From an uncultured Gammaproteobacteria bacterium (GTDB taxonomy: Bacteria; Patescibacteriota; Microgenomatia; UBA8517): DNA of 64,000 nucleotides. Below are positions 5,434-51,537 of the stretch, one piece after another. Location: the NCBI GenBank assembly GCA_964540475.1, contig CAZIMC010000001.1:345575-409574 (forward strand), read 5' to 3'. A program made the translations under genes and the position numbers. The notes beneath the pieces are model-generated. The model was not told the DNA's origin. It ran no database searches and was given only the letters and a program-made list of their open reading frames with translations. How positions within the stretch are numbered: the first letter of the stretch is position 1; the number at the start of each line of letters is the position of its first letter.

Positions 5434-5445
5434 TGCGGCACTAAG

Positions 5446-23754: not shown

Positions 23755-24336
23755 ATGAGCCAAGTAGAACACGGAGCCAATACTACTGAAAATATAAAAA
23801 CTACAAACATACCCGGACTATTAATCATTGAAAGGCCGACATTCACTGATAATAGGGGGTTTTTCCATGAAGTATGCAGACTTACCGACCTTGATTTAAT
23901 GGGAGTTGATTTTAAGCCAATACAAACTAGCCACTCCAAGTCAGAACCTGGGGTAATTCGGGCAATTCATACTGAACAGTGGCAAAAACTAATTTATCCG
24001 GTCACTGGTGTAATGTTTGCTGCGATAGTTGATGTGCGTCCTGAAAGCCCCACTTTTGGTATGTACGAAACATTTGTGTTTGATAATTCACGTCCGGAAT
24101 CTAAGCATACCGCCCTTTTTTTACCAAAAGGTTTAGGTAATTCAATTTGTGTAGTGGGCGATGAGCCGGTCCATTATATCTACCAAGTAGACGAATATTG
24201 GGATAATGCCAAAGCACAAGGAATTGCGTGGGATGACCCCGATCTAGCTATTCCGTGGCCAGTTGCGAATCCGACTATCTCCGAGCGCGATATGCATAAC
24301 CCGACATTAAGAGAACTTTTCCCACACAAATTTTAA
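23755..24336 (+). CDS. rfbC: dTDP-4-dehydrorhamnose 3,5-epimerase
   Basis: This 193-aa cupin has 'IPGLLIIERPTFTDNRGFFHE' and 'RAIHTEQW...YQVDEYWD', which match RmlC. Confidence 0.8.
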   Translation: MSQVEHGANTTENIKTTNIPGLLIIERPTFTDNRGFFHEVCRLTDLDLMGVDFKPIQTSHSKSEPGVIRAIHTEQWQKLIYPVTGVMFAAIVDVRPESPTFGMYETFVFDNSRPESKHTALFLPKGLGNSICVVGDEPVHYIYQVDEYWDNAKAQGIAWDDPDLAIPWPVANPTISERDMHNPTLRELFPHKF

Positions 24337-32242: not shown

Positions 32243-35200
32243 TTGCTTTGTGTTAAACTTTGTAAAGTACGTATGATGTTTAAGCGTTTGCGACAACTAC
32301 TTTTGAGTAAAAACACCATATTGATAATTATATTAACCCTGTTGGTTATATGGGCAGGGAAGGGCATCTTTAAATATAATGTTTTCAGTACACATGACGG
32401 AAATCACCACATTGCCAGATGTTATGACGCAGTCCAAACAATAAAGGAGGGGCATTTTCCGTTAAGATGGGCGGGAAGTCTTAATTACGGTTGCGGTGTG
32501 CCTATTTATAATTTCTTTTACCCACTGCTTTACTATCTTGTTATTATTCTCGAAGCTATATCTGGTAGGATAATATTTTCACTTAAAGTTATATATTTCT
32601 TATCACTTCTTATTTCGACGATATTTTTCTACCTCTGGATGAAAGTTGAGACAGGCAGAAAAAGCGCAGCATTTGCTTCGTCTCTGCTTTACCTATTTGC
32701 CCCATACCGGTTTTCACTGATATTTGTCAGGGGGTCGCCAGAATTTTTAGCTTATGCCTTGTTCCCGGTGGTTTTGTATATTTATTCACTTTTCTTCAAG
32801 GCTGAAAATAGGCGGACAAAGTTACTATTAGCCTTCATGGCAGTCTTAAGCGGTGGGGCATTGGCAATTTCGCATAATTTTACCGTTCTTTTCCTGATGC
32901 CAATACTTCTACTATATTTAATTGTAAAAATATTAAATACAAGAGACCCGGAGTGGGCACTTGCTATTTTTAGTTTTATCAGTAGCTTCACTCTAAGTGC
33001 ATTTTTTATTCTGCCGGCAGTCGTAGAGAAAAAATTTACTAAACTAGGGTCTTTAGATATTGTCAACTATAAAGAACACTTCCCGACTTTATGGCAATTA
33101 ATTCGCTCTAAGTGGGACTACTTCTATTCTTCACCAGGCGTTGAAAATGATGGAATGTCTTTTATGCTGGGATATGCACAATGGGTAGTACTTGCCGTAT
33201 CAACGACTTTCCTTGTAGTTAGTTTTGTTAAACATAGGAGTAGACTGAAAGCATTTATTTTCAAAAACGCCAGTGTATTGGCTTCACTTACCCTATCGTT
33301 ACTAAGCGTATTTATGATGTTACCTGTGTCCGAACCCTTGTGGGAAGTTTTACCATTTATTTCTGACATTCAGTTCCCGTGGCGTTTATTGGGTATTGCA
33401 ACATTCTTTATTAGTGTGTTATTCGGTTTCCTCCTTACAAGTATAAAAAATAAAAAAGTTTACTGGCTAATCCTTGTTATTGTGTCGATTTTGGCAATTT
33501 ATGGTAATAAAAATCACATACTTCCCCAACCAGTCTCGGTTGAAGATTTATACATGTATAGCGATTTTGATAAGTTGCACTATCACAGGTATACGACTAC
33601 AACTTTGGGTGATGACATTATTGCGCCATCCGCGCCGAGTGCTTGCTATTATTCCAGCGAAAAGGTTTATTGGGAAGATAGCTCACCCCTTGATCACGAA
33701 GTGTTAAGTTCCGGCAATACTTTCGCGGATATTAAAATTAATATTAATGAACCACCAGCTGAACGAAGCGTGGTATTACACCTCTCGTATTTCCCCAATA
33801 CCTTCGATGTGAACGTAAATGGAATTAAAATCGATTACCGGGATTGTCAAGGGTTGGTGTGTTTTAACCCCGACATATTAAGAGAAGGTACTAATTTCAT
33901 ATCATGGGGTGTTAAGCAAACTCCGATACAAAATATAGGAAATGTAATCACACTAATAACATTGGTAGGGTGGTTTGTATTCGTGATAGTGTTTTACAAC
34001 AAGAACAGCAAATTCACCAGGAAAGATTTAGCTATATTTCTAACAATATTTTGCACCCTAATTGTTTTTATCTTTTTAAGATTTACTAACATACATCAAA
34101 GAATTAGTTTTGGTTGGGATCAGGAGAGAGATGCAGTGGCGGCAACCGAGATACTACGTGGAAATTTTACTTTGATTGGCCCACAAGCCTTGGGGCCTGA
34201 AGGATTTTTCTTGCCGCCATATTTTTACTACTTTCTTTCTCCGTTTTACTTTATTACCAGTGGAAATCCACTAGCGATGATACTCTTTTTGGCTGCCTAT
34301 AATCTTACTTTCTTTTCTCTAAGTTTTATTGTAATCAAAAGATTATTCGGTTTGTACCCCGCTCTGTTTTTATTGGCTTTCTGGGCAGTTAACCCAAGAA
34401 TTGTTCAAATGGATACCACCTCTTGGAATCCTCTCTTAATTCCTTTGTTTGTGATACTTTTGTTCTATTTGTATTACTCATACTATATTAAAAACAAGCT
34501 TCAGACTTTATTGTTGATAGGAATAATGTATGGAATTGGCTTGGGTATGCATATACAGTTTTTGTTATTATTTCCATTTGTTATACCCCTGGTCCAGGCG
34601 ATATTAAAAACTTCACTTAAGCCGAGGCTTAAAAGAGCAGCCTCATTGCTTTTTGGTTTTATGCTCACACTCTTGCCGCTTGTAATATTTGATATTCGAA
34701 ATAATTTTCTAAACCTGAATTTAATGTTAGGATTTTTATCTAAAAATTCTCAAAGTAGCGGATATCCGTTTCTTCAAACTTTCGACAGATTCTTTTACAG
34801 TCTTACGGGTTTATATTCGATACCTGGTCTGGGAATAATTTCCTATATACTGGGCTTGCTTTTTATTATTTTTATAAGATATAAGATTACTCAGAAAACT
34901 TTTGAAAAGAAATTTTTTGAAGGATTATCGTATGTGTGGGGGTTAACGCCTTTCTATTTTTTGATTTATCGTGGCAGTGTTTCTGAATATTACTTCAATT
35001 ATTTAATACCAGTATTTTTAGTTGCATTAGCTTTTGCAGCAGGCAGGATTTATCAATATTTGGCAATAAGAAAGATGTCGTTTTTTATGGTACTAGTAGT
35101 CCCTGTGCTTTTATTCTGGCTTTTGAGAAGTTATGGTGACTTAAAGCCCCACGCCTTAAGCCTTTTCTTTAAAGACAAAGCGATAAGTTTTTTGTCAACA

Positions 35201-35434
35201 GTGTCAGCGAAAAGCCCCGAGTTTAATGTATCCTTTGATGCTCCGCACAACGAAGATGCAGGGTTTAGATACTTATTAAGATATCACAAAGTTCCAGCTA
35301 CTGGGGATCCTCGCGATCCACTGGTTGAGATAATTATCCCACCTGATAAAAAGCCCGAGCCTTATATTTTTGGTGGAATTGGTGTATATTTACCTGATGG
35401 ATTTGCTTCTTCAGTTGGTTTAAAGGAAAATTAG
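32243..35434 (+). CDS. Large (1063 aa) GT-C-fold membrane protein, family B paralog (YfhO-like?)
   Basis: The N-terminal loop is 'FSTHDGNHHIARCYDAVQTIKEGHFPLRWAGSLNYGCGVPIYNFFYPLLYY', followed later by 'FPWRLLGIA'. These blocks are shared with the ORFs at 43836, 46237 and 47891. It has more than 20 TM helices. Confidence 0.5.
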   Translation: MLCVKLCKVRMMFKRLRQLLLSKNTILIIILTLLVIWAGKGIFKYNVFSTHDGNHHIARCYDAVQTIKEGHFPLRWAGSLNYGCGVPIYNFFYPLLYYLVIILEAISGRIIFSLKVIYFLSLLISTIFFYLWMKVETGRKSAAFASSLLYLFAPYRFSLIFVRGSPEFLAYALFPVVLYIYSLFFKAENRRTKLLLAFMAVLSGGALAISHNFTVLFLMPILLLYLIVKILNTRDPEWALAIFSFISSFTLSAFFILPAVVEKKFTKLGSLDIVNYKEHFPTLWQLIRSKWDYFYSSPGVENDGMSFMLGYAQWVVLAVSTTFLVVSFVKHRSRLKAFIFKNASVLASLTLSLLSVFMMLPVSEPLWEVLPFISDIQFPWRLLGIATFFISVLFGFLLTSIKNKKVYWLILVIVSILAIYGNKNHILPQPVSVEDLYMYSDFDKLHYHRYTTTTLGDDIIAPSAPSACYYSSEKVYWEDSSPLDHEVLSSGNTFADIKININEPPAERSVVLHLSYFPNTFDVNVNGIKIDYRDCQGLVCFNPDILREGTNFISWGVKQTPIQNIGNVITLITLVGWFVFVIVFYNKNSKFTRKDLAIFLTIFCTLIVFIFLRFTNIHQRISFGWDQERDAVAATEILRGNFTLIGPQALGPEGFFLPPYFYYFLSPFYFITSGNPLAMILFLAAYNLTFFSLSFIVIKRLFGLYPALFLLAFWAVNPRIVQMDTTSWNPLLIPLFVILLFYLYYSYYIKNKLQTLLLIGIMYGIGLGMHIQFLLLFPFVIPLVQAILKTSLKPRLKRAASLLFGFMLTLLPLVIFDIRNNFLNLNLMLGFLSKNSQSSGYPFLQTFDRFFYSLTGLYSIPGLGIISYILGLLFIIFIRYKITQKTFEKKFFEGLSYVWGLTPFYFLIYRGSVSEYYFNYLIPVFLVALAFAAGRIYQYLAIRKMSFFMVLVVPVLLFWLLRSYGDLKPHALSLFFKDKAISFLSTVSAKSPEFNVSFDAPHNEDAGFRYLLRYHKVPATGDPRDPLVEIIIPPDKKPEPYIFGGIGVYLPDGFASSVGLKEN

Positions 35435-37766: not shown

Positions 37767-39266
37767 ATGTCAGTAATTAATCAACATCAGGACCATCTGG
37801 ATCCGACTCTTGAGATTAGCCTTGATACTGTCAAGAAACGTGCAGTTCAAGGCATAATCGCACTAACAGGCAGGACATTTATTTTAAATATTATTGCCTT
37901 TGTAGCTCAGGGATTTTTATGGGCGTATCTTAACGAGTTTCAGTTTGGGGTGTTTTGGATTGTTTCTGCGGTTGTGAACTTCATGGCGTATTTTTCGGAT
38001 ATTGGCTTGGCAGCTGCTTTGATTCAGATGAGAGAAAAACCGCAGGAGAGTGACTTAAGGACAATATTTACTGTTCAACAAACTCTGGTTTTCCTTCTTT
38101 TAATCATTCTTTTTATAGTAAGCCCGCTTCTTGCACGAACACATAACTTATCAAATGAGGGAATAATGCTTTTATATGCATTAGGGTTTTCTTTTTTCCT
38201 ATCCTCTTTAAAAAGTATCCCTTCAGTGCTACTGGAGCGCAAGCTCGAGTTTGGAAAATTCGTTATTCCACAGGTTTTGGAGACATTTGTTTACAGTATT
38301 GTTGTTGTAATTCTTGCCTGGAGGGGATTTGGTATTACAAGTTTTACCTATGCTGTAGTTATCCGAGGAATCGTTGGGATGACAGCAATTTATCTTTTAG
38401 AGCCCTGGAAGCCGGGTTTTGCTTTTTCTAAGGATGCGTTAAAAAAATTATTATCCTTTGGCATACCATATCAGCTAAACACCTTTCTGGCAGTTCTTAA
38501 AGATGATGGTATGACAATTCTTCTGGGAGGGATTTTAGGGCCTGCGGGAATTGGGATATTGGGTACTGCACAAAGGCTTGCTTCATATCCTTTACGTTTT
38601 TTTATGGATAATGTAACAAAGGTTACATTTCCGGCCTTTTCTAGAATGCAGGATTCGCCGCGAGATCTGCAAAACAGTTTAACCAGATCAATATTTTTTA
38701 TATGTTATCTTGTTTTTCCTTCGACCGTTGGTATGGTTATATTATCTCCGGTGCTTATACAGATTGTTCCAGGGTACGCTAAATGGGAGCCGGCACTGAT
38801 TCCTTTAATGCTTATTTCGATAAATACACTATTTGCGTCTGTCACGACACAGTTAACCAATGCACTAAATGCAACCGGGAGAATTAAAATTACGTTTTTC
38901 TTGATGATTGGCTGGACTGTCCTGACCTGGCTTTCTGTTCCATACTTGTCAGCAACCTTTGGGGTTAATGGTGCAGCTGCCGGATATGCATTGGTTGGGA
39001 GCTCTTCAGCATTGGCTATAATCATTGCACGAAGGTTCGTTAAATTTTCGTTACTTGCATCAGTTGTTAAGCCAGCACTTGCGACAATTGCAATGGGGGC
39101 AGCCTTGATTATTGGCAGAAACTTGCTTGCCGCAAGTTTGTCTGGTTTTTCTTTCTTAATCATTTTGGGGGCAATTACCTACGGATTATCATCATTTATT
39201 CTAATTGGAGCAAATCTGATCCACGATGTACGTCACAGTATAAAAACTATTTTTGCTAGACAGTGA
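37767..39266 (+). CDS. Wzx-like polysaccharide/oligosaccharide flippase (MOP superfamily)
   Basis: This 499-aa ORF has about 14 TMs. The Wzx/MurJ-like polysaccharide-biosynthesis-protein layout is supported by 'GIPYQLNTFLAVLKDDGMTILLGGILGPAGIGILGTAQRLASYP'. Confidence 0.6.
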   Translation: MSVINQHQDHLDPTLEISLDTVKKRAVQGIIALTGRTFILNIIAFVAQGFLWAYLNEFQFGVFWIVSAVVNFMAYFSDIGLAAALIQMREKPQESDLRTIFTVQQTLVFLLLIILFIVSPLLARTHNLSNEGIMLLYALGFSFFLSSLKSIPSVLLERKLEFGKFVIPQVLETFVYSIVVVILAWRGFGITSFTYAVVIRGIVGMTAIYLLEPWKPGFAFSKDALKKLLSFGIPYQLNTFLAVLKDDGMTILLGGILGPAGIGILGTAQRLASYPLRFFMDNVTKVTFPAFSRMQDSPRDLQNSLTRSIFFICYLVFPSTVGMVILSPVLIQIVPGYAKWEPALIPLMLISINTLFASVTTQLTNALNATGRIKITFFLMIGWTVLTWLSVPYLSATFGVNGAAAGYALVGSSSALAIIIARRFVKFSLLASVVKPALATIAMGAALIIGRNLLAASLSGFSFLIILGAITYGLSSFILIGANLIHDVRHSIKTIFARQ

Positions 39267-39312: not shown

Positions 39313-40224
39313 GTGAGTAGCATTACAGTCTGTATAAATACATTAAACGAGGAAAAAAATCTTCCCAAAGCCATTTCTTCTATAAAAAGTATAGCAAGCG
39401 ACATAGTAGTAGTTGACATGATGAGCGATGATGAGACTGTAAAGGTGGCCAAAAAGCTTGGTGCCAAGGTATATGAATATAGAAGAATGGGGTATGTAGA
39501 GCCAGCGAGAAACTTTGCGTTGTCAAAGGCGACTGGGGATTGGGTGTTAATTCTGGATGCGGATGAGGTTATTCCGCCAGCTTTAGCCAAGAAATTCGTA
39601 GAAATTGCCAGAAAATCTACCTTTACTTACTACAGGGTTCCAAGGAAAAATATCAACTTCGGTAAGTGGATGAGACATTCGCGATGGTGGCCGGATTATA
39701 ATATCAGGTTTTTCAAAAAGGGAAGTGTTACCTGGAATGACGAAATTCACTCAATCCCGGTTACTTACGGCAAAGGCGCAGATCTACCTTCTGAAGAGCA
39801 ATTTGCCATAGTCCATTCAAATTATTCAACCGTTGAGCAGTATCTTTCCCGCATGGAGAGGTATACGACCATTCAAGCTGATGAGTTGTTAAAGAAAAAT
39901 CACAAGTTTATTTGGAAAGACTTAGTTAAAAAACCAATGGCAGAGTTTTTAAGCAGGTACTTTTTAGCGGAGGGTTACAAAGATGGTTTGCACGGACTTG
40001 CCCTTTCGGGATTACAGGCTTTTTCCGAATTTATCGTATTCTTAAAAGTCTGGCAGAAAGAGAAGTTTTTAGAACAAACTACCACTCCAGACGAAATTGA
40101 AGAACAATTTAGCGAAAGTATGAACGAAATTAAATGGTGGATATTTGAGACTCGGATTAGAAACGCCAAGCCAATATCCGCCTCAGTTAATAAACTCGCC
40201 CGCAAAATATTCTTGCGAAAATGA
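39313..40224 (+). CDS. Family 2 glycosyltransferase
   Basis: 'ITVCINTLNEEKNLPKAISSI' and 'VLILDADEVI' (DxD) indicate a soluble GT2-A fold. Confidence 0.7.
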   Translation: MSSITVCINTLNEEKNLPKAISSIKSIASDIVVVDMMSDDETVKVAKKLGAKVYEYRRMGYVEPARNFALSKATGDWVLILDADEVIPPALAKKFVEIARKSTFTYYRVPRKNINFGKWMRHSRWWPDYNIRFFKKGSVTWNDEIHSIPVTYGKGADLPSEEQFAIVHSNYSTVEQYLSRMERYTTIQADELLKKNHKFIWKDLVKKPMAEFLSRYFLAEGYKDGLHGLALSGLQAFSEFIVFLKVWQKEKFLEQTTTPDEIEEQFSESMNEIKWWIFETRIRNAKPISASVNKLARKIFLRK

Positions 40225-41138
40225 CTACGAAGATTTATGCAGTACTAGTTAACTGGAATGGAGTGTCCGACACACTGGCTTGTGTTAAATCATTGCAAAG
40301 AGCTGTTAGACGTGGATTTACACTCGATATAGTTGTAGTTGATAATGGTTCGACCGACAATTCACCTGAGACTCTTCGGAAAAATTATTCCGGGGACAAC
40401 AAGGTACACCTGATTTTAAGCAGAAAAAATAACGGATTTACTGGAGGCAACAATAAAGGTATATCATATGCTCTTAAGAGGGAGGCCGATTTTGTGCTTG
40501 TTATCAATAACGACACTGAGGTACACCAGGATCTTGTAATTAACTTATTTGAAGCCTTTAAAGATAATTCCAGTGTCGGTATTACTTCACCAAAGATCTA
40601 TTTTTCTCCCGGATTTGAATATCACAAAAAATATAAAACCTCGCACATAGGCAAAATTATTTGGTACGCCGGAGGGATTTTGGATTGGAATAATGTTTAT
40701 GGACAGAATCGCGGTGTTGATGAGGTGGATCAGGGTCAGTTTAACCAGGTAGAGGAAATTGATTTTGCAACGGGAGCTTGTATGATGATTGACAGCCGGT
40801 TGCTAAAAAAAATTGGCTACTTCAACGAAAAATATTTTGCTTATCTTGAAGATGTTGAATTTTCCTGGCGTACAAAACTGGCTGGCTGGAAGATAATATA
40901 TGTGCCGAGCGCATGCTTATGGCACAAAGTTTCCCAGTCGTCGGGAATCGGCAGTAACCTAAATGATTATTTTATAACCCGAAATAGATTGCTTTTTGGC
41001 ATGAAGTATGCAAAGTTACGCACAAGACTTGCATTAATAAGGGAAGCGATTAGATTCGTGGTAAATGGTAGAAAGTGGCAGAAAACCGCGGTTATCGATT
41101 TTATGACCGGAAACCTGGGAAAGGGGAGTTTTGAATAA
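40221..41138 (+). CDS. Family 2 glycosyltransferase (rhamnosyltransferase-like, 'VNWN' subgroup)
   Basis: 'YAVLVNWNGVSDTLACVKSL', 'VVVDNGSTDNS' and 'YLEDVEFSWR' are typical of WbbL-like GT2 rhamnosyltransferases. The dTDP-rhamnose genes are in the same window. Confidence 0.7.
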   Translation: MTTKIYAVLVNWNGVSDTLACVKSLQRAVRRGFTLDIVVVDNGSTDNSPETLRKNYSGDNKVHLILSRKNNGFTGGNNKGISYALKREADFVLVINNDTEVHQDLVINLFEAFKDNSSVGITSPKIYFSPGFEYHKKYKTSHIGKIIWYAGGILDWNNVYGQNRGVDEVDQGQFNQVEEIDFATGACMMIDSRLLKKIGYFNEKYFAYLEDVEFSWRTKLAGWKIIYVPSACLWHKVSQSSGIGSNLNDYFITRNRLLFGMKYAKLRTRLALIREAIRFVVNGRKWQKTAVIDFMTGNLGKGSFE

Positions 41139-41904
41139 TATGCGTATCTCGGCAATTGTTATTACAAAAAATGAGGAAAAAATGCTTCCGGACTGCCTTA
41201 AAAGTTTATCATGGGTTGATGAGATAGTTGTAGTTGATAGCGGTTCATCCGATAAAACAGTAAATATTGCAAAAAGGAACGGAGCCAAGGTGTTTTTAAA
41301 CAAAAGTTTTAGTTTCTCTTCTTCAAGAAATCTAGGCTTAAAGCATGCAAAAGGTGAATGGGTACTATATATAGATGCTGATGAGAGGGTAACTGAAGAA
41401 TTGAGGGGAGAGATTGTGCTGGTGATAGGAGGAACTATTAACAACTATAATGCCTATGCTATTCCCCGGAGAAATATAATTTTAGGGAAGGAGTTTAAAT
41501 TTGGCGGACAGAGGCCGGATTATGTTAAGAGATTGTTCTTAAAGGTAAACCTGGAAAACTGGGATGGAGAGCTTCACGAGGAACCAAGGTTTAAGGGGGA
41601 GCTGGGGCACCTTAAAAATTCGCTTTTACACATTAAACATGAGTCTTTTCCTGAGATGGTAGAAAAGACCAATAATTGGAGTGAAGTGGAGGCAAAACTA
41701 ATGTTCCTTGCAAAACATCCGCCAATGACTATACCCAGATTTTTCTCGGCAATTTTGCGTGAATTTTGGTTGCGGATGATCAGGCAGTTGGCATTCTTGG
41801 ATGGCGCTGAGGGAATAATGTATGCAATGTATCTGGTGTTTAGCAGGTTTATAAGTTACGCCAAACTTTGGGAACTTCAATACAAGAAAGGCATAGTAAA
41901 ATGA
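41131..41904 (+). CDS. Family 2 glycosyltransferase
   Basis: 'ISAIVITKNEEKMLPDCLKSL', 'VVVDSGSSDKT' and 'YIDADERV' are GT2 motifs. Confidence 0.7.
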   Translation: MNNMRISAIVITKNEEKMLPDCLKSLSWVDEIVVVDSGSSDKTVNIAKRNGAKVFLNKSFSFSSSRNLGLKHAKGEWVLYIDADERVTEELRGEIVLVIGGTINNYNAYAIPRRNIILGKEFKFGGQRPDYVKRLFLKVNLENWDGELHEEPRFKGELGHLKNSLLHIKHESFPEMVEKTNNWSEVEAKLMFLAKHPPMTIPRFFSAILREFWLRMIRQLAFLDGAEGIMYAMYLVFSRFISYAKLWELQYKKGIVK

Positions 41905-42932
41905 AGGCAGCCGTTTACAGTCCATATCTTGATACTCTTGGTGGCGGAGAACGCTACGTTTTAAGCTTTGCGAAAGTTCTTTCTGACAACGGTTGGTCCG
42001 TTGATTTGCAATCCTCGGATAATGTTATTACAAAGAAACTCGAAAAAAGATTTGGGCTTCACTTTAAAAACATCAAAACCGTAGAAGACATAAAAAGAGG
42101 AGACGGGTACGATTTATGTTTTTGGCTTTCCGATGGTAGTGTCCCAAATTTATTAGCCAGAAAAAACATACTTCACTTCCAGAGGCCATTTTTTAACGTA
42201 GACGGTAAAAACCTGATTAATAGAATGAAGTTTTTTAGAATAAATAGGGTGGTTGTTAATTCAGTATTCACTAAAAAATGGATAGATAAGGAGTATCCGG
42301 TTAATTCTACGATTTTGTATCCACCAGTTGATGTTTCAAAATTTAAACCTGGGAAAAAGGAGAAGCTAATAATTTGTATTGCAAGGTTTTCTCAACTTGA
42401 GCAGTCTAAAAGGCAGGATGTCTTAGTTTCTGCATTTAAAAAGCTTTACGATTTAGGGAATAAAGATTGGAAAATGGTGCTGGCTGGGGGGAGCGAGGTG
42501 GGAAGAACCAACTACGTGGACACATTGAGGCGATCCGGGAAAGGATACCCCATTAGAATAATTGAGAATCCTGATTTCAAGGTGATTAAAGACCTTTATG
42601 CGAAGGCAAAGATATTTTGGTCGGCGAGCGGGTATGGGGTTGACGAAGAGAAGAACCCACAGAAATTGGAGCATTTTGGAATTACAGTAGTTGAAGCAAT
42701 GTCAGCCGGAGTGCTTCCTGTAGTTTATAATGCCGGTGGTCATAAAGAAATTATTGAAGATAGCGTGAATGGGTTTCTTTGGAAGACTAAGGGTGAATTG
42801 ATTAAAAAAACCAGAAAGATCATCGAAGAAGATAAATTTATTAAAGATATAGTCAAAAGTGCAAAGTCGGATTCAAATATATACTCCTATGAGTCATTCG
42901 AAAAAAAGGTGCTAGAAATAATTAAACCCTGA
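41901..42932 (+). CDS. Family 4 (GT-B, group 1) glycosyltransferase
   Basis: 'EHFGITVVEAMSAGVLPVVYNAGG' matches the GT4 E-x7-E motif. It has two Rossmann-like halves. An ATGA overlap with the upstream gene puts the start at 41901 rather than the track's 41868. Confidence 0.7.
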   Translation: MKAAVYSPYLDTLGGGERYVLSFAKVLSDNGWSVDLQSSDNVITKKLEKRFGLHFKNIKTVEDIKRGDGYDLCFWLSDGSVPNLLARKNILHFQRPFFNVDGKNLINRMKFFRINRVVVNSVFTKKWIDKEYPVNSTILYPPVDVSKFKPGKKEKLIICIARFSQLEQSKRQDVLVSAFKKLYDLGNKDWKMVLAGGSEVGRTNYVDTLRRSGKGYPIRIIENPDFKVIKDLYAKAKIFWSASGYGVDEEKNPQKLEHFGITVVEAMSAGVLPVVYNAGGHKEIIEDSVNGFLWKTKGELIKKTRKIIEEDKFIKDIVKSAKSDSNIYSYESFEKKVLEIIKP

Positions 42933-42933
42933 T

Positions 42934-43833
42934 ATGAAACTAAAAGTTAGTATAGTAATACCAAATTACAACGGCAGAGAGATATTAGAAAAGAATCTTG
43001 CTGGCGTTATGGCTGCCGTTACTGATACTGCTAACAACATACACGAAACGATAGTGGTAGATGATGCTTCGACCGATGATAGTGTGGCTTTCATTAAGGA
43101 TAACTATCCGGAAATTAGACTTATAAAACACCGGATAAACAGGGGATTTGCAAGTAGCGTAAATACAGGTGTGCGCATGGCAAAGGGGGAGCTGGTCGTT
43201 TTACTGAATAGCGATGTGTTCCCAAGTGTAAGATTTTTGGCAAGTACCTTTAGGCATTTCGAAAACGAAAACGTGTTTGGGGTTTCTCTGCACGAAAAAG
43301 GATATGGCCCAGCAAGAGGGGTTTTTAAAGACGGCTTTGTTGGACACGAGTCAATTGAGGAAAGTAATCAGGCAAAAGATACTTTTTGGGTAAGTGGAGG
43401 TAGCGGGATTTTTAGAAGAAACGGGTGGATAAAGTTAGGAGGAATGGACGAGAAATTATTAAGCCCTTTTTATTGGGAAGATTTAGATTTGTGTTACCGT
43501 GCGCAAAAAAGAGGGTATGTATTAATTTGGGAGCCAAAAGCGCTAGTTACACACAAACACGAAACAACAATTGGGAGATTGCCGCAAAAGTATGTAGATA
43601 GAATTAGAGAGAGAAACCAACTTATATTTATTTGGAAAAATCTTACCAGCTCTAGACTATTTAGAAAACATTTAGTTGGGTTGACGAAAAGGAGTATTTT
43701 ACACCCAGGCTACATAAGAATAGTGTTGATGTCATTGTCTAAGGTTGGATTAATCTTGAAAGCTCGAAGAGCCGAAGCCAAAGAGGGTAAAATATCTGAT
43801 GAGACAATATTTCAAAGATTTGTAAGAAAATAG
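42934..43833 (+). CDS. Family 2 glycosyltransferase
   Basis: 'VSIVIPNYNGREIL', 'IVVDDASTDDS' and 'VLLNSDVF' are GT2 motifs. Confidence 0.7.
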   Translation: MKLKVSIVIPNYNGREILEKNLAGVMAAVTDTANNIHETIVVDDASTDDSVAFIKDNYPEIRLIKHRINRGFASSVNTGVRMAKGELVVLLNSDVFPSVRFLASTFRHFENENVFGVSLHEKGYGPARGVFKDGFVGHESIEESNQAKDTFWVSGGSGIFRRNGWIKLGGMDEKLLSPFYWEDLDLCYRAQKRGYVLIWEPKALVTHKHETTIGRLPQKYVDRIRERNQLIFIWKNLTSSRLFRKHLVGLTKRSILHPGYIRIVLMSLSKVGLILKARRAEAKEGKISDETIFQRFVRK

Positions 43834-43835
43834 AA

Positions 43836-46280
43836 ATGAAAGACCTGTCAATAATAATTGTAAATTATAATACTCCCGATTTGGTGCAAGATTGTGTTAG
43901 TTCGATAAAGTCCTCAAAAACAAAACTAAATTACGAAATTATTGTAGTTGATAATGGTTCTGACAAAAGGCCGTCGAAGCTAAAAGACTGTACTCTCATA
44001 GTAAATAAAGAAAATCTGGGATTCGCAAAAGCGAACAATCAAGGGTTAGAAATTGCCAAAGGAAAGCACATACTGGTTCTTAACTCGGATACCCTGGTCG
44101 AAGAAGGAGCGTTAGACATGCTTTTCAGTTTTGCTGAAAATACTGGTGATGCTGGGGTTGTAGGACCGAGACTTTTAAATAAGGATGGATCACTACAGAA
44201 GTCATGCTTTAATTTTCCATCGATTAAAAACGCAATATTGGAGTTTTGGTTTAACAAAAAGGGCGCTTATCAAAAGTTTGCTCCCGAAACAACAAACCCG
44301 GTTGCGGTGGACGCAGTAGTTGGTGCGGCCTTTTTGATAACCCAAAAGGCTAAAAAGCGTGTCGGGAAACTAAACGAGAAATATTTTATGTATTTTGAAG
44401 ACTTGGATTATTGCAGGAAGGTAAAAAAAGCTGGATTAAAAACATATTATTTACCTCAAGCTCAAATTGTTCATTATCACGGAGCAAGCGGAAAGAAACT
44501 TAAGAAAGCTAGCGATCAATGGAAGCGGTTAATCCCTGCTAGTAAAATTTATCATGGCACGGTTAAGCATTACTTGTTGTCTGCGATTATTTGGTCGGGT
44601 CAACGATTTTCCTCATACTTACCCTTCTTTTTGGTATTGGTTATTACCATACCTGCATTTTGGCATTTATTAAAACCAGGCTTTTTCCCCATGCAAGACG
44701 ATCTTCAGGCATTTCGCGTACAGCAGTTGGATAAATGTCTTGACGATCTGCAAATTCCCTGCCGTTGGGTGCCGGATGCGGGTTATCAGTATGGTTACCC
44801 GCAATTTAATTATTATCCCCCATTACCTTATTATGTTGGAGCCATATTGCATAGAGTAGGGCTTCAATATATCGATGTTGTTAAGGTTCTTTTCATATTG
44901 GGATACATTTTTTCAGCATATGCCATATACGTTTTAGTCTCTGAAATTGCAAACAAATGGTCTGGCTTTGTGGTGTCGATTTTGTATACGTATATCCCAT
45001 ACAAGGCGGTAGAAGTTTATGTGAGAGGTGCGCTAAACGAGTTTTGGGCACAAATATTTTTTCCTTTAATACTGTGGTCTATTTATAAAATTGTTAAATC
45101 AGGTAGTAATAAATATTTAATTTTACTAGGAATTTCACTTGCCTTATTGTCAACTACACATTTATTGATGACTTTAATTTTCATACCTGTTACAGCAATT
45201 TGGGCCCTTTACTGGCTAAAAGTAGGAGAAGGGAAGAATCTAAAAAAATTAATATTGGGTGGATTATTAAGTATTGGTCTATCGGCATTTTTTGTTTTTC
45301 CGGTAATTTTCGAAAAAAGGTTTGCCCATGTCGAAAGCATGCTTTCAGGGTATTTTGATTATAGACAACATTTCATTAGCCTATATAAAATGTTTCTATC
45401 AAGAGAATGGGGATATGGCTCATCAGGTTTTCCTGATGAATTGCTGAACCTCTCACTGGGGCTAGTTCAATGGATAGCCGCCTTGGGTGCTACGGTAATT
45501 GCTTTCATAAAATTTCGAGGCGACAGGAAAACTTCTAGTCTTGTACTTCTCTTGTCTGTTACTACGCTTGCAAGCATTTTTATGATGCATATGAAGTCCA
45601 GTTTTATCTGGGCAAATCTTCCGGTTTTATGGTATTTACAGTTTCCCTGGAGATTTCTAGCTGTTAGTATATTTTTAACATGTATCTTGTCTGGGTTTTT
45701 AATTTACTTTATTAAACGGTATAGGTATTTGATTGGCGTATTTCTGATAATATTAGCGTTTGTATTAAATATTTCTTATTTTGTTCCCAAAGATTGGTAT
45801 TATATTTCAGATGAAGAAAAGTTTTCAGGCGTTTTCTGGGAAAAACAATTAACTATAAGTATATTTGACTATCTACCAATATATGCAACGCTCCCTCCCC
45901 CTTCCAAGGCACCTGAATTACCAGAGGTGCTTGAAGGGGAAGTCGTTTTTGAGTCCTACAATAAACGAAGTAATTATCAATATGGGGAAGTAGAGGTTCT
46001 AGAGGAAGCTTTAGTTAGAGTGCCGTTATTCGATTTTCCTGGGATGGTGGTTACGGCGGGTGGAAACAAAATTGTCCATTGGAATGATGAGTGTAGACAT
46101 GAGCCGTATTGCTTAGGCCTTATCACCTTCCGGTTGCCTCCTGGTAAGTATGACTTAAATATAGCCCTTCAGAATACCCCGGTAAGAAGTGTGGGAAACT
46201 TTCTTACAATATTTACCCTTTTGATACTTGTAATATATGCTTACAGACAAAAAAGAAATGAAAAGCTTGCTAACCAATAA
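43836..46280 (+). CDS. Fusion protein: N-terminal GT2 glycosyltransferase + C-terminal family B GT-C membrane domain
   Basis: Residues 1-250 carry 'LSIIIVNYNTPDL', 'IVVDNGSDK', 'LVLNSDT' and 'YFEDLDYC' (GT2). Residues about 270-814 carry 'FFPMQDDLQAFRVQQLDKCLDDLQIPCRWVPDAGYQYGYPQFNYYPPLPYY' and 'FPWRFLAV' (family B) across about 13 TMs. Confidence 0.6.
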   Translation: MKDLSIIIVNYNTPDLVQDCVSSIKSSKTKLNYEIIVVDNGSDKRPSKLKDCTLIVNKENLGFAKANNQGLEIAKGKHILVLNSDTLVEEGALDMLFSFAENTGDAGVVGPRLLNKDGSLQKSCFNFPSIKNAILEFWFNKKGAYQKFAPETTNPVAVDAVVGAAFLITQKAKKRVGKLNEKYFMYFEDLDYCRKVKKAGLKTYYLPQAQIVHYHGASGKKLKKASDQWKRLIPASKIYHGTVKHYLLSAIIWSGQRFSSYLPFFLVLVITIPAFWHLLKPGFFPMQDDLQAFRVQQLDKCLDDLQIPCRWVPDAGYQYGYPQFNYYPPLPYYVGAILHRVGLQYIDVVKVLFILGYIFSAYAIYVLVSEIANKWSGFVVSILYTYIPYKAVEVYVRGALNEFWAQIFFPLILWSIYKIVKSGSNKYLILLGISLALLSTTHLLMTLIFIPVTAIWALYWLKVGEGKNLKKLILGGLLSIGLSAFFVFPVIFEKRFAHVESMLSGYFDYRQHFISLYKMFLSREWGYGSSGFPDELLNLSLGLVQWIAALGATVIAFIKFRGDRKTSSLVLLLSVTTLASIFMMHMKSSFIWANLPVLWYLQFPWRFLAVSIFLTCILSGFLIYFIKRYRYLIGVFLIILAFVLNISYFVPKDWYYISDEEKFSGVFWEKQLTISIFDYLPIYATLPPPSKAPELPEVLEGEVVFESYNKRSNYQYGEVEVLEEALVRVPLFDFPGMVVTAGGNKIVHWNDECRHEPYCLGLITFRLPPGKYDLNIALQNTPVRSVGNFLTIFTLLILVIYAYRQKRNEKLANQ

Positions 46281-47919
46281 CTGGGAAAAGATTTTGTTGA
46301 TACTCCTTGGTCTTACGTTATCATGGCCTATTTTTGTTCGTGGATATTTCTCGCATCATGACGACCTTCAGGTTATAAGAATTTTTGAAATGCGCAACTG
46401 TCTTGTTGATTTGCAAATTCCCTGCCGATGGGTCTCCAATATGGGCAATGGTTATGGTTTTCCTCTGTTTAATTACTATAATCCGCTTCCTTACTATATT
46501 GGTGGTTTGGCAAGTTTCATAACTGGATATGTTAACGCTGCTAAGCTTTTGTTCCTGATACCCGCCGTTTTTTCCGGATTGGCAATGTATTTATTTGTTG
46601 AACAATTGACGAACAAAAAAACCGCAATATTGGCAGGCGCACTATACACACTAGCTCCTTATAGAGCCCTTGATTTATATGTCCGGGGGGCGATTGGGGA
46701 AAGTTTTGCAATACTCATTGTTCCTCTTTTGTTCTATATGAGCCTATTACTAACGAAAGATCCAAAACCAAAACATTTTATTGTTATGACACTTGTGACC
46801 TTTGCCTTTTTAGTGAGTCATAATGTTTCGGTGGTGTTGTGGGCACCTGTTTTTTTAATTTGGTTTATATATCTTGTATATAAATACAAATTGAAAGCTA
46901 TCTGGCCTGTAGTACTTTCGGTATTAATAGGTATCGGTATTTCTTCTTTTTTTGTTATCCCTGCATTTATGGAAAGAGATTTAGTAACGACTGAAAACTT
47001 AATAAGCACGGACTTGGATTTTAGAAATCATTTCGTTTCATATAAACAGCTCCTGTTTGACAGGGAATGGGGTTACGGAGCATCCGTTCCTGGACCGGAA
47101 GATGACATGTCATTTCAGGTTGGCTACCCGCACTGGTTACTGGCTATCCTGGCTCCGGCACTGTTTCTTTTAAAAAGAAAAAATCTTAACGATGGATTAG
47201 CGCCTATCATAACGATATTTACAGCGATTTTCTTATTGTCATTATTCATGACACACAACAAATCTTCATTTGTGTGGGAAAATTTTAGTATATTGCAATT
47301 TGTCCAATTCCCATGGAGATATTTGTCTATCACTATATTTGCATCATCAATCCTCGGGGGGCTAATTGTTTATATGTTAGACAAGCAATTTGCCAAAGCG
47401 ATTATCATAATTCTTTTTATAACAACATTTTTTTTAAACTGGCATTACTTTAAGCCTCAGCTATTTTTCACTGATACGAATGATGTAAGTAAGTTGAGCG
47501 GACGGCAGTGGGATAACCAGATCGAAGGATCAATGTTAGACTATTTACCAAAAGGCGCCATTGAAATGGGAGAAAAGTCATCTGATTATCCACGTCTTCT
47601 TGAGGGCGACGGGGATGTTGCGCCTTTAGTCAAGAAAACAAACAGTTGGCAGGCGGCAGTAAATTTATCCGAAGACGGCAAGATTATTATACCGGTTTAT
47701 GATTTTCCTATATGGCGGGTTAGGCTTAATGGTAAAGAGGTAAACCATAGTACGCATGAAGGGCTAATACTGTTAGATTTGCCCGATGGAGAGAACATGA
47801 TCGATGGGAAATTAGAAAATACTCCCATTCGCACCGTATCGAATGCAATTACACTTTTAAGTCTGGCAGGTTTACCTGCCCTATTAATATATGGAAAAAG
47901 CAGAAAGATTCTTAGATAA
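46237..47919 (+). CDS. GT-C-fold membrane protein, family B paralog
   Basis: 'YFSHHDDLQVIRIFEMRNCLVDLQIPCRWVSNMGNGYGFPLFNYYNPLPYY', 'DREWGYGASVPGPEDDMSF' and 'FPWRYLSI' are close to the C-terminal half of the upstream fusion protein. Confidence 0.5.
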   Translation: MLTDKKEMKSLLTNNWEKILLILLGLTLSWPIFVRGYFSHHDDLQVIRIFEMRNCLVDLQIPCRWVSNMGNGYGFPLFNYYNPLPYYIGGLASFITGYVNAAKLLFLIPAVFSGLAMYLFVEQLTNKKTAILAGALYTLAPYRALDLYVRGAIGESFAILIVPLLFYMSLLLTKDPKPKHFIVMTLVTFAFLVSHNVSVVLWAPVFLIWFIYLVYKYKLKAIWPVVLSVLIGIGISSFFVIPAFMERDLVTTENLISTDLDFRNHFVSYKQLLFDREWGYGASVPGPEDDMSFQVGYPHWLLAILAPALFLLKRKNLNDGLAPIITIFTAIFLLSLFMTHNKSSFVWENFSILQFVQFPWRYLSITIFASSILGGLIVYMLDKQFAKAIIIILFITTFFLNWHYFKPQLFFTDTNDVSKLSGRQWDNQIEGSMLDYLPKGAIEMGEKSSDYPRLLEGDGDVAPLVKKTNSWQAAVNLSEDGKIIIPVYDFPIWRVRLNGKEVNHSTHEGLILLDLPDGENMIDGKLENTPIRTVSNAITLLSLAGLPALLIYGKSRKILR

Positions 47920-49552
47920 GTACATTATAATATTCTTTTTATTACTCACCATTCCGGCTACATGGTCGCTTTTTAAATTCGGATTTTTTGGGGTGTCGGA
48001 TGATTTGCACATAGGCTGGCTTCATCAAATGCATAGAGCAATTAGTATGGGCCAGTTTCCCGCCAGATATGTTCCGGATCTAAGTTACGGTTTTGGTTAC
48101 CCGCTCTTTAATTTTTATGCACCTCTACCATTTTATATCGGCGAAATTTTTCATAATTTGGGTTTTAGTTTGGTTGATAGTATTAAGGCCTTGTTTCTTA
48201 TTAGCCTTCCTCTATCGGGGTACTTTATGTACAAACTACTAAGAGAGTTTGGTAATCCTTTCGTTTCTTTATTTGGAGGACTTTTATATGTTTATACACC
48301 GTACCGAGCAACCGATATTTTTGTTAGGGGAGCGGTGGGGGAGGCGACTGTTTTTATTTTTATACCATTAGTGGTTTTATCATTTATTAAAGTCTTTAAA
48401 AGCCAAAACTTGGATTATAAATCGATTGGATTAGGGGGACTTTCATTGGCACTATTGATAACGTCGCACAATATTACTGCCTTAATCTTATATTCCCTTC
48501 TTATTCCCCTATTTTTAATTTATTTGTATTTTTCCAAACAGCGGCTAATGCATTTTTTATCAACACTTTATGTTTCTTTGCTTGGACTTTTGATAAGCAG
48601 TTTTTTTTGGGTTCCTGCTATTGTTGAAAGTGGGCTAGTAAAATATGACACAGTCTTTAATTATTGGGATCACTTCCCAACATTAAGGCAACTTGTAACT
48701 CCTTATTTTGGTCACGGTGCGTCTGTCCCTGGTCCATATGACTTGATGTCTTTCTATGCGGGAATTGTGAATGTTTCTCTTATTATTGCGGGTACTGTTT
48801 TAGTTTTTAAGATAAATAAGGTTCCAGTTAATATAAGGCCGTTTATGTTCTGGCTGGTACTAATAAGTATGATTTCAGTTTTCTTTATGAACCACCGTTC
48901 GGCATTTCTTTGGGAAAATCTACCATTAATTGCATATTTCCAGTTTCCGTGGAGATTTCTAACAATTATAACTTTTGCCAGTGCTGGTTTGGCTGTTTTA
49001 CTGAGTGTTGTTAAGAAAAACAGAATTTTTTCTGTGATACTGATCTTGGTTGTTATTGGTATAAACTATTCATATTTTAGGCCGGAATCTTTTTTGGGAC
49101 GGACTGATGAATATTACATTGATAGATACATACCTTTTCCCAACGCAAGCGAAGCATATAAGCAAACTGGTGAGGAATATTTAAGATTGCCCCAGGACAC
49201 GCAAATCCGTCCGAGTGAGAATTACCCACGGTTTTATTCTGATCAAATTGAAATTAAAAATATCGAAATAATAAATCCGTTAAATGCCAGAGCGCATGTG
49301 GTATCAAGCGGCGTTGGACTCCTGAATTATAATAAATATAACTATCCCGGTTGGGTTGTTGAGATTAATGGTGTAAATACTCCAATTGAGACCGGGACAC
49401 CATATGGGCAGATTGCAGTTGTAGTTCCAGAAGGAGAACACCTTGTTGAAGTTCGTTTTAGCGAAACCCCTTTTAGGACAGTATTTAATTTTATATCGGT
49501 AAGCGCATTGATTGTTGCGGCAATTTTGATAATCAAAGGAATTCGAAAGTAA
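47891..49552 (+). CDS. GT-C-fold membrane protein, family B paralog
   Basis: 'FFGVSDDLHIGWLHQMHRAISMGQFPARYVPDLSYGFGYPLFNFYAPLPFY', 'GHGASVPGPYDLMSF' and 'FPWRFLTI' are the family B blocks. Confidence 0.5.
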   Translation: MEKAERFLDKYIIIFFLLLTIPATWSLFKFGFFGVSDDLHIGWLHQMHRAISMGQFPARYVPDLSYGFGYPLFNFYAPLPFYIGEIFHNLGFSLVDSIKALFLISLPLSGYFMYKLLREFGNPFVSLFGGLLYVYTPYRATDIFVRGAVGEATVFIFIPLVVLSFIKVFKSQNLDYKSIGLGGLSLALLITSHNITALILYSLLIPLFLIYLYFSKQRLMHFLSTLYVSLLGLLISSFFWVPAIVESGLVKYDTVFNYWDHFPTLRQLVTPYFGHGASVPGPYDLMSFYAGIVNVSLIIAGTVLVFKINKVPVNIRPFMFWLVLISMISVFFMNHRSAFLWENLPLIAYFQFPWRFLTIITFASAGLAVLLSVVKKNRIFSVILILVVIGINYSYFRPESFLGRTDEYYIDRYIPFPNASEAYKQTGEEYLRLPQDTQIRPSENYPRFYSDQIEIKNIEIINPLNARAHVVSSGVGLLNYNKYNYPGWVVEINGVNTPIETGTPYGQIAVVVPEGEHLVEVRFSETPFRTVFNFISVSALIVAAILIIKGIRK

Positions 49553-51537
49553 TGGATGCGAGTATGATTTGGGATATCGGTAAGTTCATATTGTTTATTC
49601 TGTTGGTTTTTTTAGTTCCGGGAAGCGTTTTAATAAAAAATTCTTCAAATAAATACCTACTTTCAACTGTTTTTACTTCTATATGTGTGGGTCTGGTGGC
49701 ATTTACCGCAGCTTCACTGCTTGGGGGATACCTTAATTTCAGGCATTTAAACTTACTTGTAACAGTTCTATTTTTTTTGTTTTTTATATTTACCAACAAA
49801 GAAAGATTAGGCACAAGGGTCACTCCATTAGTAGAACTTATAAAGAAAAAGCATTTGTGCTGGTTGTTTGCAATAATTCTACTAGGTACGGTATTTCAAA
49901 ATAATACAACCTTTCGTTCTGGGACTATTTATGATTTTGGTGTAGGTTATTGGGGACCTCTTGCAAGAGATGGTGTGTGGCATGAGGCACTTACAAACGA
50001 GCTTGTTGCAAAATTCCCTCCGGATAATCCTGGTCTATCTAGCGAAAGGCTAGTTAATTACCACTATCTTTATAACTTGTTGGTTGCTGAGACTCATAAA
50101 TTTTCCGGTATATCAATTCCCGATCTAATTTATAGGTTATACCCGATATTATTTTCTATCCTGCTGGGGATCGGGACATATGTGCTCTCAATAAAGCTTT
50201 TTAAGAAGAGAGTAGTATCTCTGTTTGCCGTTTTCTTTGCATATTTCGGCAGTAGTTTTGGTTGGATAGTGGAATACATTCGTAGCGGGGCGCTGGGCGG
50301 TGAATCGACGTTTTGGGCGAATCAACCAGTGTCTTTTAATTTAAACCCTCCTTTTGCAGTATCCTTAGTTTTACTCATTAGTCTTGCTTACCTATTTTTA
50401 CAACTTAAGTTTAAGAGAAAAGGGATTTATTTGTCATTCATCATGATTGGTTCACTTTTGATTGGGTTCAAAGTTTATGCAGGATTAATTTTTATAGGTG
50501 CATTGGCGGCAATTTCCTTGGAGGCGTTAATTTTTAAGAAAAGATTGCTTTATTTAAAATTATTAATAGTCATACTCCCATTAACATTTTTGATATTTGC
50601 TTTGCAGTCGCCTTTCGCAGGGGGGCTTATCGAATTCAGGCCATTTTGGTTTGTTGACTCTATGATGGATTTTGGTGACAGGGTGGGATGGCTTAGGATA
50701 TCGATGGCCAGAGATGCATATTTTGAAGAAGACAGATGGATTAAATATCTAAGCGTTGAGTCCTTGTCATTTGCAATATTTGTAATCGGGAATATGGGAA
50801 CACGTATTATCGGGCTTATACCTGCTCTTGGGATCTGGTGGAAATCCTTATTCAAGCTTAATGGTTTTTGCTTAATATTTTGGATGAGTTTAATAGCATT
50901 TGCGCTTCCTTTAATATTTGTGCAAAAAGGAAATCCTTGGAACACAATTCAATTTTTTTATTACTTCCTGTATTTTTCAGCACTTTTCGCAGGATACTCG
51001 CTCTATGTGATTTCAAAAAAGTTACCCCGTAATTTAGGATTAATTTGTGTGGTATTTATACTGCTTGTTACACCAATAAGCTCAGTCGGAACATTCAGGT
51101 CGGGATTTAACCCAACCCCACCCGCAAGTATTAGTGGGTATGAATATGAGGCTTTGAAATTTCTATCAAACCAGAAAAGGGGCGCGGTATTAACTTACCC
51201 CTACAAAGCCGGTTTAAGAGAAAAATTTGATGAGCCCTTTCCTTTGTGGGCATATTCCCCCAGCACCTATGTATCCGCCGTTTCCGGTCAGCCTGTATTT
51301 CTTGAGGACATTGAGCAGCAAACCATATTGCAGTATGACTTTAAATCCCGAGAAAACCAGAGTGTAAAATTTTTTACCGAGGCAGATATTGCCTGGTCAA
51401 CGCGGTTTTTATATGGCAATGCTATTGAATATGTCTATATTCCTGAGTTTTTTAAGCTGCCAAAAGAAGAGGAAGCATACCCTATGATAAAAATATTTGA
51501 AAATTCAGAAGCTGATTTGTACAGAGTTGTGCGCTAG
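49552..51537 (+). CDS. Polytopic membrane protein with C-terminal soluble domain, putative GT-C glycosyltransferase
   Basis: This 661-aa ORF has about 13 TMs and a ~170-aa extracytoplasmic C-terminal domain. I recognise no specific family motif. Confidence 0.4.
   Translation: MDASMIWDIGKFILFILLVFLVPGSVLIKNSSNKYLLSTVFTSICVGLVAFTAASLLGGYLNFRHLNLLVTVLFFLFFIFTNKERLGTRVTPLVELIKKKHLCWLFAIILLGTVFQNNTTFRSGTIYDFGVGYWGPLARDGVWHEALTNELVAKFPPDNPGLSSERLVNYHYLYNLLVAETHKFSGISIPDLIYRLYPILFSILLGIGTYVLSIKLFKKRVVSLFAVFFAYFGSSFGWIVEYIRSGALGGESTFWANQPVSFNLNPPFAVSLVLLISLAYLFLQLKFKRKGIYLSFIMIGSLLIGFKVYAGLIFIGALAAISLEALIFKKRLLYLKLLIVILPLTFLIFALQSPFAGGLIEFRPFWFVDSMMDFGDRVGWLRISMARDAYFEEDRWIKYLSVESLSFAIFVIGNMGTRIIGLIPALGIWWKSLFKLNGFCLIFWMSLIAFALPLIFVQKGNPWNTIQFFYYFLYFSALFAGYSLYVISKKLPRNLGLICVVFILLVTPISSVGTFRSGFNPTPPASISGYEYEALKFLSNQKRGAVLTYPYKAGLREKFDEPFPLWAYSPSTYVSAVSGQPVFLEDIEQQTILQYDFKSRENQSVKFFTEADIAWSTRFLYGNAIEYVYIPEFFKLPKEEEAYPMIKIFENSEADLYRVVR

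Follow-up and report, generated by a model that had tools for sequence, protein, structure and literature searches.

Three paralogous GT-C glycosyltransferase genes lie in one operon in the mycobacterial embCAB system, where they are specialized rather than redundant and their products work as dimers (EmbA-EmbB and EmbC2; PDB 7BVC/7BVE). Multi-component glycosylation systems such as CsbB/GtcA/YfhO, GacI/GacK/GacL and CsdAB (PMC8035078, PMC5836110) follow a general scheme that combines a GT-A polyprenyl-phosphate (Pren-P)-sugar synthase, a flippase and a GT-C enzyme (PMC8035078). Another family of the GT-C clan (CL0111), PF10131 or PTPS_related, is listed as of 'function unknown' (PMC7801869), and our searches of the literature on PF10131/PTPS_related, and on bacteria of the candidate phyla radiation (CPR) together with GT-C enzymes, yielded nothing beyond that entry. 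Here, we analyzed a 64,000-nucleotide (nt) stretch of contig CAZIMC010000001.1 from a member of the Microgenomatia (hereafter the window), in which three co-directional, overlapping open reading frames (ORFs) on the plus strand encode paralogous proteins that we term B1, B2 and B3. CPR bacteria, Microgenomates among them, attach to other cells and have small genomes of about 1 Mb; their surface chemistry is essentially uncharted. We propose that B1, B2 and B3 are anciently diverged, specialized GT-C transferases that depend on Pren-P-sugars and act on a surface glycan, in series or as a complex; we put the probability of this reading at roughly 60%. The array genes and a more distant relative in the window are as follows (residue numbers in the text are those of B2 unless another protein is named):

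43836..44600, plus strand: N-terminal, cytoplasmic GT2 (GT-A fold) domain of B1, aa 1-255 (PF00535, 81 bits, aa 5-122).
44601..46280, plus strand: PF10131 GT-C module of B1, aa ~256-814 (27.8 bits; position-1 clade; invariant residues present). The whole B1 gene, 43836-46280, encodes 814 aa.
46237..47919, plus strand: B2, a stand-alone PF10131 GT-C protein of 560 aa (52.7 bits; AlphaFold2 model; Foldseek).
47891..49552, plus strand: B3, the most divergent PF10131 paralog, 553 aa (47.9 bits; position-3 clade).
32243..34042, plus strand: a fourth, more distant paralog, the N-terminal ~600-aa PF10131 module of a 1063-aa protein (41.7 bits; BLASTP).

All four PF10131 scores lie above the curated gathering threshold of that family (26.4 bits; the profile has 621 positions). 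The initial annotation had recognized a family of GT-C-like membrane glycosyltransferase paralogs, separate from the window's PMT/ArnT-like family, and both of these points hold, the GT-C placement now by way of PF10131 and Foldseek. It had also called the proteins 'possibly YfhO-like' without assigning a named family, and here our results differ: no window protein matched YfhO (PF09586) at E<=0.1. On profile evidence, the family can be named PF10131 PTPS_related, with YfhO as a clan relative only. Of 42 relatives, PF10131 is matched by 36; 12 have an additional PMT_2 match and six a secondary YfhO match. No NCBIfam model matched the GT-C proteins; STT3 (PF02516) had no match in window proteins, with faint secondary matches in a few B2 orthologs only; and the Emb and Aft profiles (PF04602/PF12250) gave no Pfam match in window proteins. 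The PF10131-type family is large, with 19,584 clusters at 50% identity in a profile search at E<=1e-3 and 6,701 at E<=1e-30. The array proteins resemble it in their threshold scores, polytopic architecture and GT-C fold, and differ in that they match only the N-terminal half of its profile. The family name adds no mechanism to them: '6-pyruvoyl-tetrahydropterin synthase' is a misnomer for the array proteins, and an annotation as '6-pyruvoyl-tetrahydropterin synthase-related' is misleading.

We found the three ORFs where the initial annotation had placed them, on the plus strand, with its quoted motif strings in their translations. The C-terminal ~560 aa of B1 and the full lengths of B2 and B3 are colinear and similar far beyond chance (BLASTP E 1e-63 to 1e-101). 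In pairwise comparison, B1 (aa 276-806) and B2 are 33.6% identical over 538 aa (E 2e-101), B1 and B3 31.1% over 569 aa (E 1.5e-63), and B2 and B3 30.0% over 567 aa (E 5e-74). This formal alignment, which had been suggested as a check on the block matches, thus gives a full-length protein identity of 30-34% and confirms that the matches are not coincidental. The same motifs had been noticed in the 1063-aa protein at 32243-35434, and its N-terminal ~600 aa are indeed 25-33% identical to B1-B3 (E 1e-40 to 1e-43). The signature proposed for the whole family is present as strings, but B3 has diverged from it, with YFGHGAS in place of REWGYG and FPARYV in place of IPCRWV.

Adjacent, co-directional genes for colinear paralogs could have arisen by recent tandem amplification, with one GT-C gene doubled twice in this lineage and the copies now diverging, and this was how the initial annotation had read the array. 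The protein identity of 30-34% speaks against it, as does the DNA: with the gene overlaps set aside, the copies share only patches of 57-107 nt at 72-78% identity, at the most conserved motifs, and no extended similarity. Orthologs of each copy, at 43-51% identity, also occur in the same order in other genomes. From 80 loci that an alignment-based scan retrieved from species-representative genomes, together with further loci of relatives, we assembled 81 non-redundant loci, and found the order B1-B2-B3 in at least 54 of these 81 Microgenomates loci: 38 plain triads, 13 with a fourth copy downstream, and three in which B1 is fused to GT2. Most loci without a full triad are cut contigs. Orthologs of B2 are 45-51% identical to it in many Microgenomates metagenome-assembled genomes (MAGs; Daviesbacteria, Woesebacteria and others), compared with 30-34% for its own neighbors. 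Mean identity within a positional class is 43-47% (43% for B3, 45-47% for B1 and B2), as against 28-36% between classes.

The same picture emerged from a neighbor-joining tree of 180 sequences, labeled by array position alone and rooted on the fourth paralog. Positions 1, 2 and 3 were each monophyletic (57/57 each), as was position 4 (8/8), and every one of the 171 sequences in the first three classes had its nearest neighbor in its own class. Bootstrap support, computed on 61 taxa, was 99%, 61% and 68% for classes 1, 2 and 3 and 100% for a clade of B1 and B2; the deepest split separates B3 from B1 and B2, and resolution is poorest at the base of the B2 class. A phylogeny had been proposed as a further check on the duplication, and in it each positional class groups with its counterparts from other genomes, which argues against recent duplication. 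Because protein identity is low, extended DNA identity is absent, orthologs are closer than neighbors, order is kept and the classes are monophyletic, we conclude that the copies are not recent. To judge from these trees and identities, all splits among B1-B3 are older than the divergence of the sampled Microgenomates, and we regard a recent amplification as highly improbable. In annotation, an identity of 30% between tandem paralogs should not be taken as a sign of recent amplification.

The position-4 sequences form a fourth tandem paralog (B4), located downstream of B3 in some loci of the Daviesbacteria type (for example L006:13383-15116, L007:13292-14995 and L022:13312-15015, among others). 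B4 is closest to B1 and B2, and retains the cysteine pair described below.

We modeled B2 with AlphaFold2 from an input of 26 orthologs (pLDDT 85.3, pTM 0.88). The model has about 12 transmembrane (TM) helices, a structured first external loop (EL1), a long loop of low confidence (aa 279-289), and a C-terminal beta-sandwich of ~80 residues (aa ~450-526) followed by the last TM helix; in the array proteins, the beta-sandwich and terminal helix are left uncovered by the PF10131 profile. In a Foldseek search of the PDB with this model, the top 27 matches were all GT-C enzymes (E 5e-5 to 2e-2), among them STT3/AglB/PglB, Pmt4, DPY19, Emb, AftD, AftA and ArnT. On the strength of the predicted structure, we regard the assignment of B2 to the GT-C fold as firm.

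The residues that all classes and the fourth paralog hold in common are D42, P62, R64, Y87, K103, R150, G151, E155, P163, H195, P242, W347 and the run Q357-F-P-W-R361. GT-C catalysis has as its hallmark an invariant acidic residue in the first external loop (PMC8035078, PMC7801869). D42 lies in the motif HDDLQ just after TM1; none of 57+57+57+8 sequences departs from it, nor does the fourth paralog, whose EL1 motif reads HDGNH. The neighboring D43 is conserved in B1 and B2. The putative catalytic aspartate is D42 in B2 (nt 46360-46362) and D288 in B1 (nt 44697-44699), and its counterpart in B3 is D37 (nt 47999-48001). Judged by the order of helices in the model and by where Lys and Arg lie under the positive-inside rule, all polar invariants would face the extracytoplasmic side. 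B3 carries fixed changes in all 57 genomes: C55 and C63 are lost (with Pro at 63), H340 is replaced by N and D435 by L, and the 'DY' of DYLP is replaced. B1, B2 and B4 have the C55-C63 pair, which is probably an external disulfide. Read from the alignment, the pattern in B3 is that of a subfunctionalized paralog and not of a decaying copy.

The array genes are also physically coupled. B1 and B2 overlap by 44 nt, B2 and B3 by 29 nt (the same length in 26 loci), and B3 overlaps the start of the gene for a 661-aa protein through the sequence TAATG. The GT2 domain of B1 is a separate gene of ~275 aa directly upstream of B1 in six loci (L009, L025, L030, L037, L046 and L070); its fusion with B1, as found in the window, recurs at L011, L015 and L044 and in four representative clusters (P0124, P0144, P0148 and P0243). 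A natural fusion of B2 and B3 also exists: P0121, of 1093 aa, occurs in identical form on three assemblies, one an NCBI MAG and the others two independent run assemblies (L085:6001-9282, L086:1531-4812 and L087:668-3949), and the gene order in its genome is GT2-GT2-B1-[B2B3]-GT87-657aa-658aa-PMT_2. Chains of a PF10131 module and a PMT_2-like module are represented by the 1063-aa window protein and by P0171 (1060 aa). In the window protein, this second module is:

34043..35434, plus strand: C-terminal PMT_2-like GT-C module of the 1063-aa protein (PF13231, aa 658-804, 22.6 bits, below the cut-off).

With the PMT_2 protein at 29572-31218 it shares 25% identity (BLASTP E 1.6e-16). The fusions are topologically consistent, in that both ends of every module lie in the cytoplasm. 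Under Rosetta-stone logic, the fusions suggest that the parts act together and, with the conserved overlapping stop/start junctions, they point to one co-translated functional module. On this genomic evidence, B1-B3 possibly form a complex.

Larger multi-module chains are also predicted. P0141 (3329 aa), P0126 (1670 aa) and P0122 (1116 aa), all from the representative library, would contain two to several PF10131-like modules each, and multi-module GT-C chains of such lengths are unusual. P0141 and P0122 look rich in Ala, Arg and Gly by eye, which suggests high-GC, probably non-CPR hosts.

The triad lies in a glycan-assembly island that extends from ~21.9 kb to beyond 64 kb of the window and has at least 15 GT-C modules in ~38 kb (26047-64000), in a genome whose size is probably near 1 Mb. 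The features in and next to it are:

21883-25271, plus strand: complete dTDP-L-rhamnose pathway (rmlA, rmlB, rmlC, rmlD), directly upstream of the island.
26047-27186, plus strand: GT2 domain fused to a GtrA/DPMS TM domain (GtrA_DPMS_TM, 57 bits; cut-off 26.1).
28883, 35452 and 57989: small Pren-P-sugar-synthase-like GT2s.
27645 (minus strand), 29572, 36211, 53356, 56239, 61855 and 63498 (cut): PMT_2/PMT-like ORFs.
37767..39266, plus strand: Wzx/MOP-type flippase (PF13440, Polysacc_synt_3, 180 bits; NF007773, 139 bits; homolog near the triad in 62 loci).
39313-43833: five further GT2/GT4 enzymes.
42934..43833, plus strand: GT2 glycosyltransferase directly upstream of B1 (PF00535, 78 bits; homolog upstream of GT2-B1 in L085).
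49552..51537, plus strand: the 661-aa polytopic membrane protein whose gene overlaps the B3 stop (adjoins the triad in 63 loci; hhalign).
51547: GT87-like ORF.

The rml genes point to a glycan that contains rhamnose, and with so many GT-C modules in 38 kb the island more likely assembles a glycan than simply decorates one. The GT2-GtrA protein at 26047-27186 would, by its domains, be a candidate Pren-P-sugar synthase and flippase in one. Best matches of the GT2s at 26047, 28883, 35452 and 57989 are ArnC, Dol-P-hexose transferase, PpgS, AglJ and PgfS, all far below the curated cut-offs. Homologs of four island proteins are found with the triad in 58-67 loci: the PMT-like protein at 36211, the GT2 at 35452, Wzx and the 661-aa protein. 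Overall, conservation of neighbors extends to 52-67 loci. ORF 59153 is related to 36211. For the PMT/ArnT-like family, the initial annotation had described the same pattern of tandem paralogs, and we agree: ORFs 53356, 56239 and 61855 are mutually 28-31% identical (E 1e-46 to 1e-72), and 61855 shares 46% identity with the cut ORF from 63498. One start, given there as 56290, is corrected here to 56239, and the others stand.

The 661-aa protein had no Pfam match. Aligned with the PF10131 family by hhalign, it gave a probability of 85% (E 5.7e-6) over 358 colinear columns, with its invariant 'RDGVWH' opposite the HDDLQ loop. Its counterpart in Daviesbacteria is part of proteins of ~1140 aa. From this profile alignment, we suggest that it is probably an undescribed, very divergent GT-C.

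Our reading of B1-B3 as specialized Pren-P-sugar-dependent transferases leads to the following model. A lipid-linked precursor, probably with rhamnose in it, would be built by the cytoplasmic GT2/GT4 enzymes, among them the GT2 fused to B1, and Wzx and GtrA-type proteins would flip this precursor and the Pren-P-sugars made by the small GT2s. On the external side of the membrane, each of B1-B3 would draw on a polyprenyl-phosphate-linked donor to add its own specific sugar or linkage, in three different steps. Each paralog would be a membrane protein of ~12 helices with both termini in the cytoplasm and an outward-facing active site around the EL1 aspartate (D42), R64, R150, E155, H195 and QFPWR361, in which the invariant aspartate would serve as catalytic base; the external beta-sandwich, tethered by the last TM helix, probably holds the acceptor glycan. 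The proteins would be made from one co-translated operon, GT2-(GT2)B1-B2-B3 followed by the 661-aa GT-C-like protein, and B1-B3 would probably work side by side, possibly as a hetero-oligomer. Such a complex would be comparable to EmbA-EmbB or Pmt1-Pmt2.

Several findings weigh against this model. B1 passes the PF10131 cut-off only marginally (27.8 versus 26.4 bits), and in all four proteins the profile aligned only over positions 1 to ~301-324 of 621. The Foldseek TM-scores of B2 are modest (0.32-0.49) and do not favor any one GT-C subfamily. Searches of the PDB with two family profiles returned no sequence-related solved structure, and the literature searched holds no characterized PF10131 member; for these two reasons the donor, the acceptor and even catalysis are what we infer. 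The GT2 fused to B1 resembles chain-building GT2s (rhamnosyltransferase/MftF-like; its domain has a weak match to rhamnosyltransferase subfamily TIGR01556) and not Pren-P-sugar synthases, and we found no priming phosphoglycosyltransferase in the window. Finally, the support that fusions and overlaps lend to a complex of B1-B3 is indirect.

In addition to sharing the organization of three paralogs in one operon, the array resembles embCAB in its extracytoplasmic carbohydrate-binding-type domains and, presumably, in a polyprenyl-phosphate-sugar donor. It differs from embCAB in several respects: window proteins lack a PF04602 match, the Foldseek TM-scores to Emb are only 0.32-0.36, and the Emb proteins have ~1050 aa with large C-terminal domains, unlike B1-B3. 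The likeness is an analogy of organization, not membership. With the multi-component glycosylation systems, the island shares its GtrA/Wzx and GT-C types and, as candidates for the synthase, its small GT2s, and it has a rhamnose pathway, as in the streptococcal and lactococcal rhamnan systems; it differs from them in that its GT-C family is PF10131, not YfhO or PMT_2, and in having three paralogs in a fixed array, with fusions between pairs of them, where those systems have a single GT-C for each GT-A.

We considered other activities for the array. The proteins could be oligosaccharyltransferases (OSTs) of the STT3/PglB/AglB or O-OTase-like kind that move a glycan en bloc from a Wzx-flipped polyprenyl-pyrophosphate carrier to proteins such as S-layer proteins, pilins or sortase substrates, with the paralogs serving different acceptors or glycans. 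STT3, AglB and PglB are the best structural matches (E 5e-5 to 1.5e-3) and, like the array proteins, carry an acidic residue in their first external loop as well as an external loop that is long and flexible; a secondary STT3 match is precomputed for several B2 orthologs, a Wzx flippase is conserved nearby, and secreted proteins and a sortase are encoded upstream. However, the C-terminal domain is the ~80-residue beta-sandwich and not of the OST type, window proteins do not match PF02516, and TM-scores are no higher for OSTs (0.36-0.49) than for Pmt4, DPY19 or AftD. In addition, a regular-expression search found the OST motif WWD[YFW]G in none of the four proteins. The similar WGYG lies outside the C-terminal domain, in a flexible loop between TM helices; B3 and the 1063-aa protein lack it, and we rejected it as a positional coincidence. 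We consider OST-like transfer unlikely. A YfhO-type decoration of the kind known from Bacillus and Listeria, in which each paralog, paired with a CsbB/GtcA-type partner, would attach a single sugar to a teichoic-acid-like polymer, would fit the common GT-C clan, the secondary YfhO matches among the relatives and in some precomputed annotations, and the presence in the island of the GT2-GtrA fusion and of small Pren-P-sugar-synthase-like GT2s. Yet PF10131 is the best family of the array proteins, which lack a PF09586 match, the GT2 domain of B1 belongs to a type other than CsbB/GtrB, and we recognized no teichoic-acid synthesis genes in the window; we have little confidence in this activity.

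A different possibility concerns the division of labor within the array: only one or two of the three proteins might be catalytic, and the other or others, most plausibly B3, might be non-catalytic partners that stabilize a hetero-oligomer or bind the acceptor. That B3 has lost the cysteine pair, H340 and the DY of DYLP in all of its genomes would agree with such a role, as would the existence of a B2-B3 fusion and the speculation that small GT-Cs may need partner proteins (PMC8035078). In contrast, B3 keeps every family-invariant residue, including D42, R64, R150, E155, H195 and QFPWR, and is conserved within its class much like B1 and B2 (mean identity 43% versus 45-47%). A non-catalytic B3 therefore seems improbable to us, and we favor three specialized transferases. 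Going further, GT2-B1-B2-B3 and the 661-aa protein might constitute a coupled, hetero-oligomeric, extracytoplasmic glycan-assembly machine, specific to Microgenomates and nearly universal there, in which each paralog makes one linkage of a lineage-defining envelope glycan. We offer this extension only tentatively. If true, it would provide the first functional context for the orphan family PF10131 (~19,600 clusters at 50% identity), and would explain why its modules occur in tandem or fused, in proteins of up to 3,329 aa.

The existence of the Pfam family was already known, its fold is ordinary, and the locus establishes no new principle. The fixed B1-B2-B3 array across Microgenomates, its pairwise fusions, its class-specific residues and the GT-C-rich island are not described in the literature that we searched. 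The array offers a testable entry point both to the function of PF10131 and to the envelope glycan of CPR bacteria.

Upstream of the rml genes, at 13871-19168 on the plus strand, lie genes for three secreted proteins of 433, 741 and 376 aa and a sortase. The three proteins have signal peptides and no Pfam match; two of them have C-terminal hydrophobic anchors, and the 741-aa protein has a Pro/Thr/Ser-rich N-terminal stretch. The sortase gene (18617-19168) follows the secreted-protein genes, and we looked for a canonical LPXTG motif and did not find one. These could be surface or pilus-like proteins and possible targets of glycosylation. Farther upstream, a DedA/VTT-domain membrane protein (4521-5165, plus strand) adjoins a LytR_C-domain protein (5404-6057, plus strand); members of the DedA family have been proposed to be polyprenyl-phosphate transporters (bioRxiv 10.1101/2022.02.03.479048). 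Between the sortase gene and the rml genes, two 198-aa ORFs occupy nearly the same bases on opposite strands (19224-19820, minus; 19228-19824, plus), and at most one of them is likely to be real.

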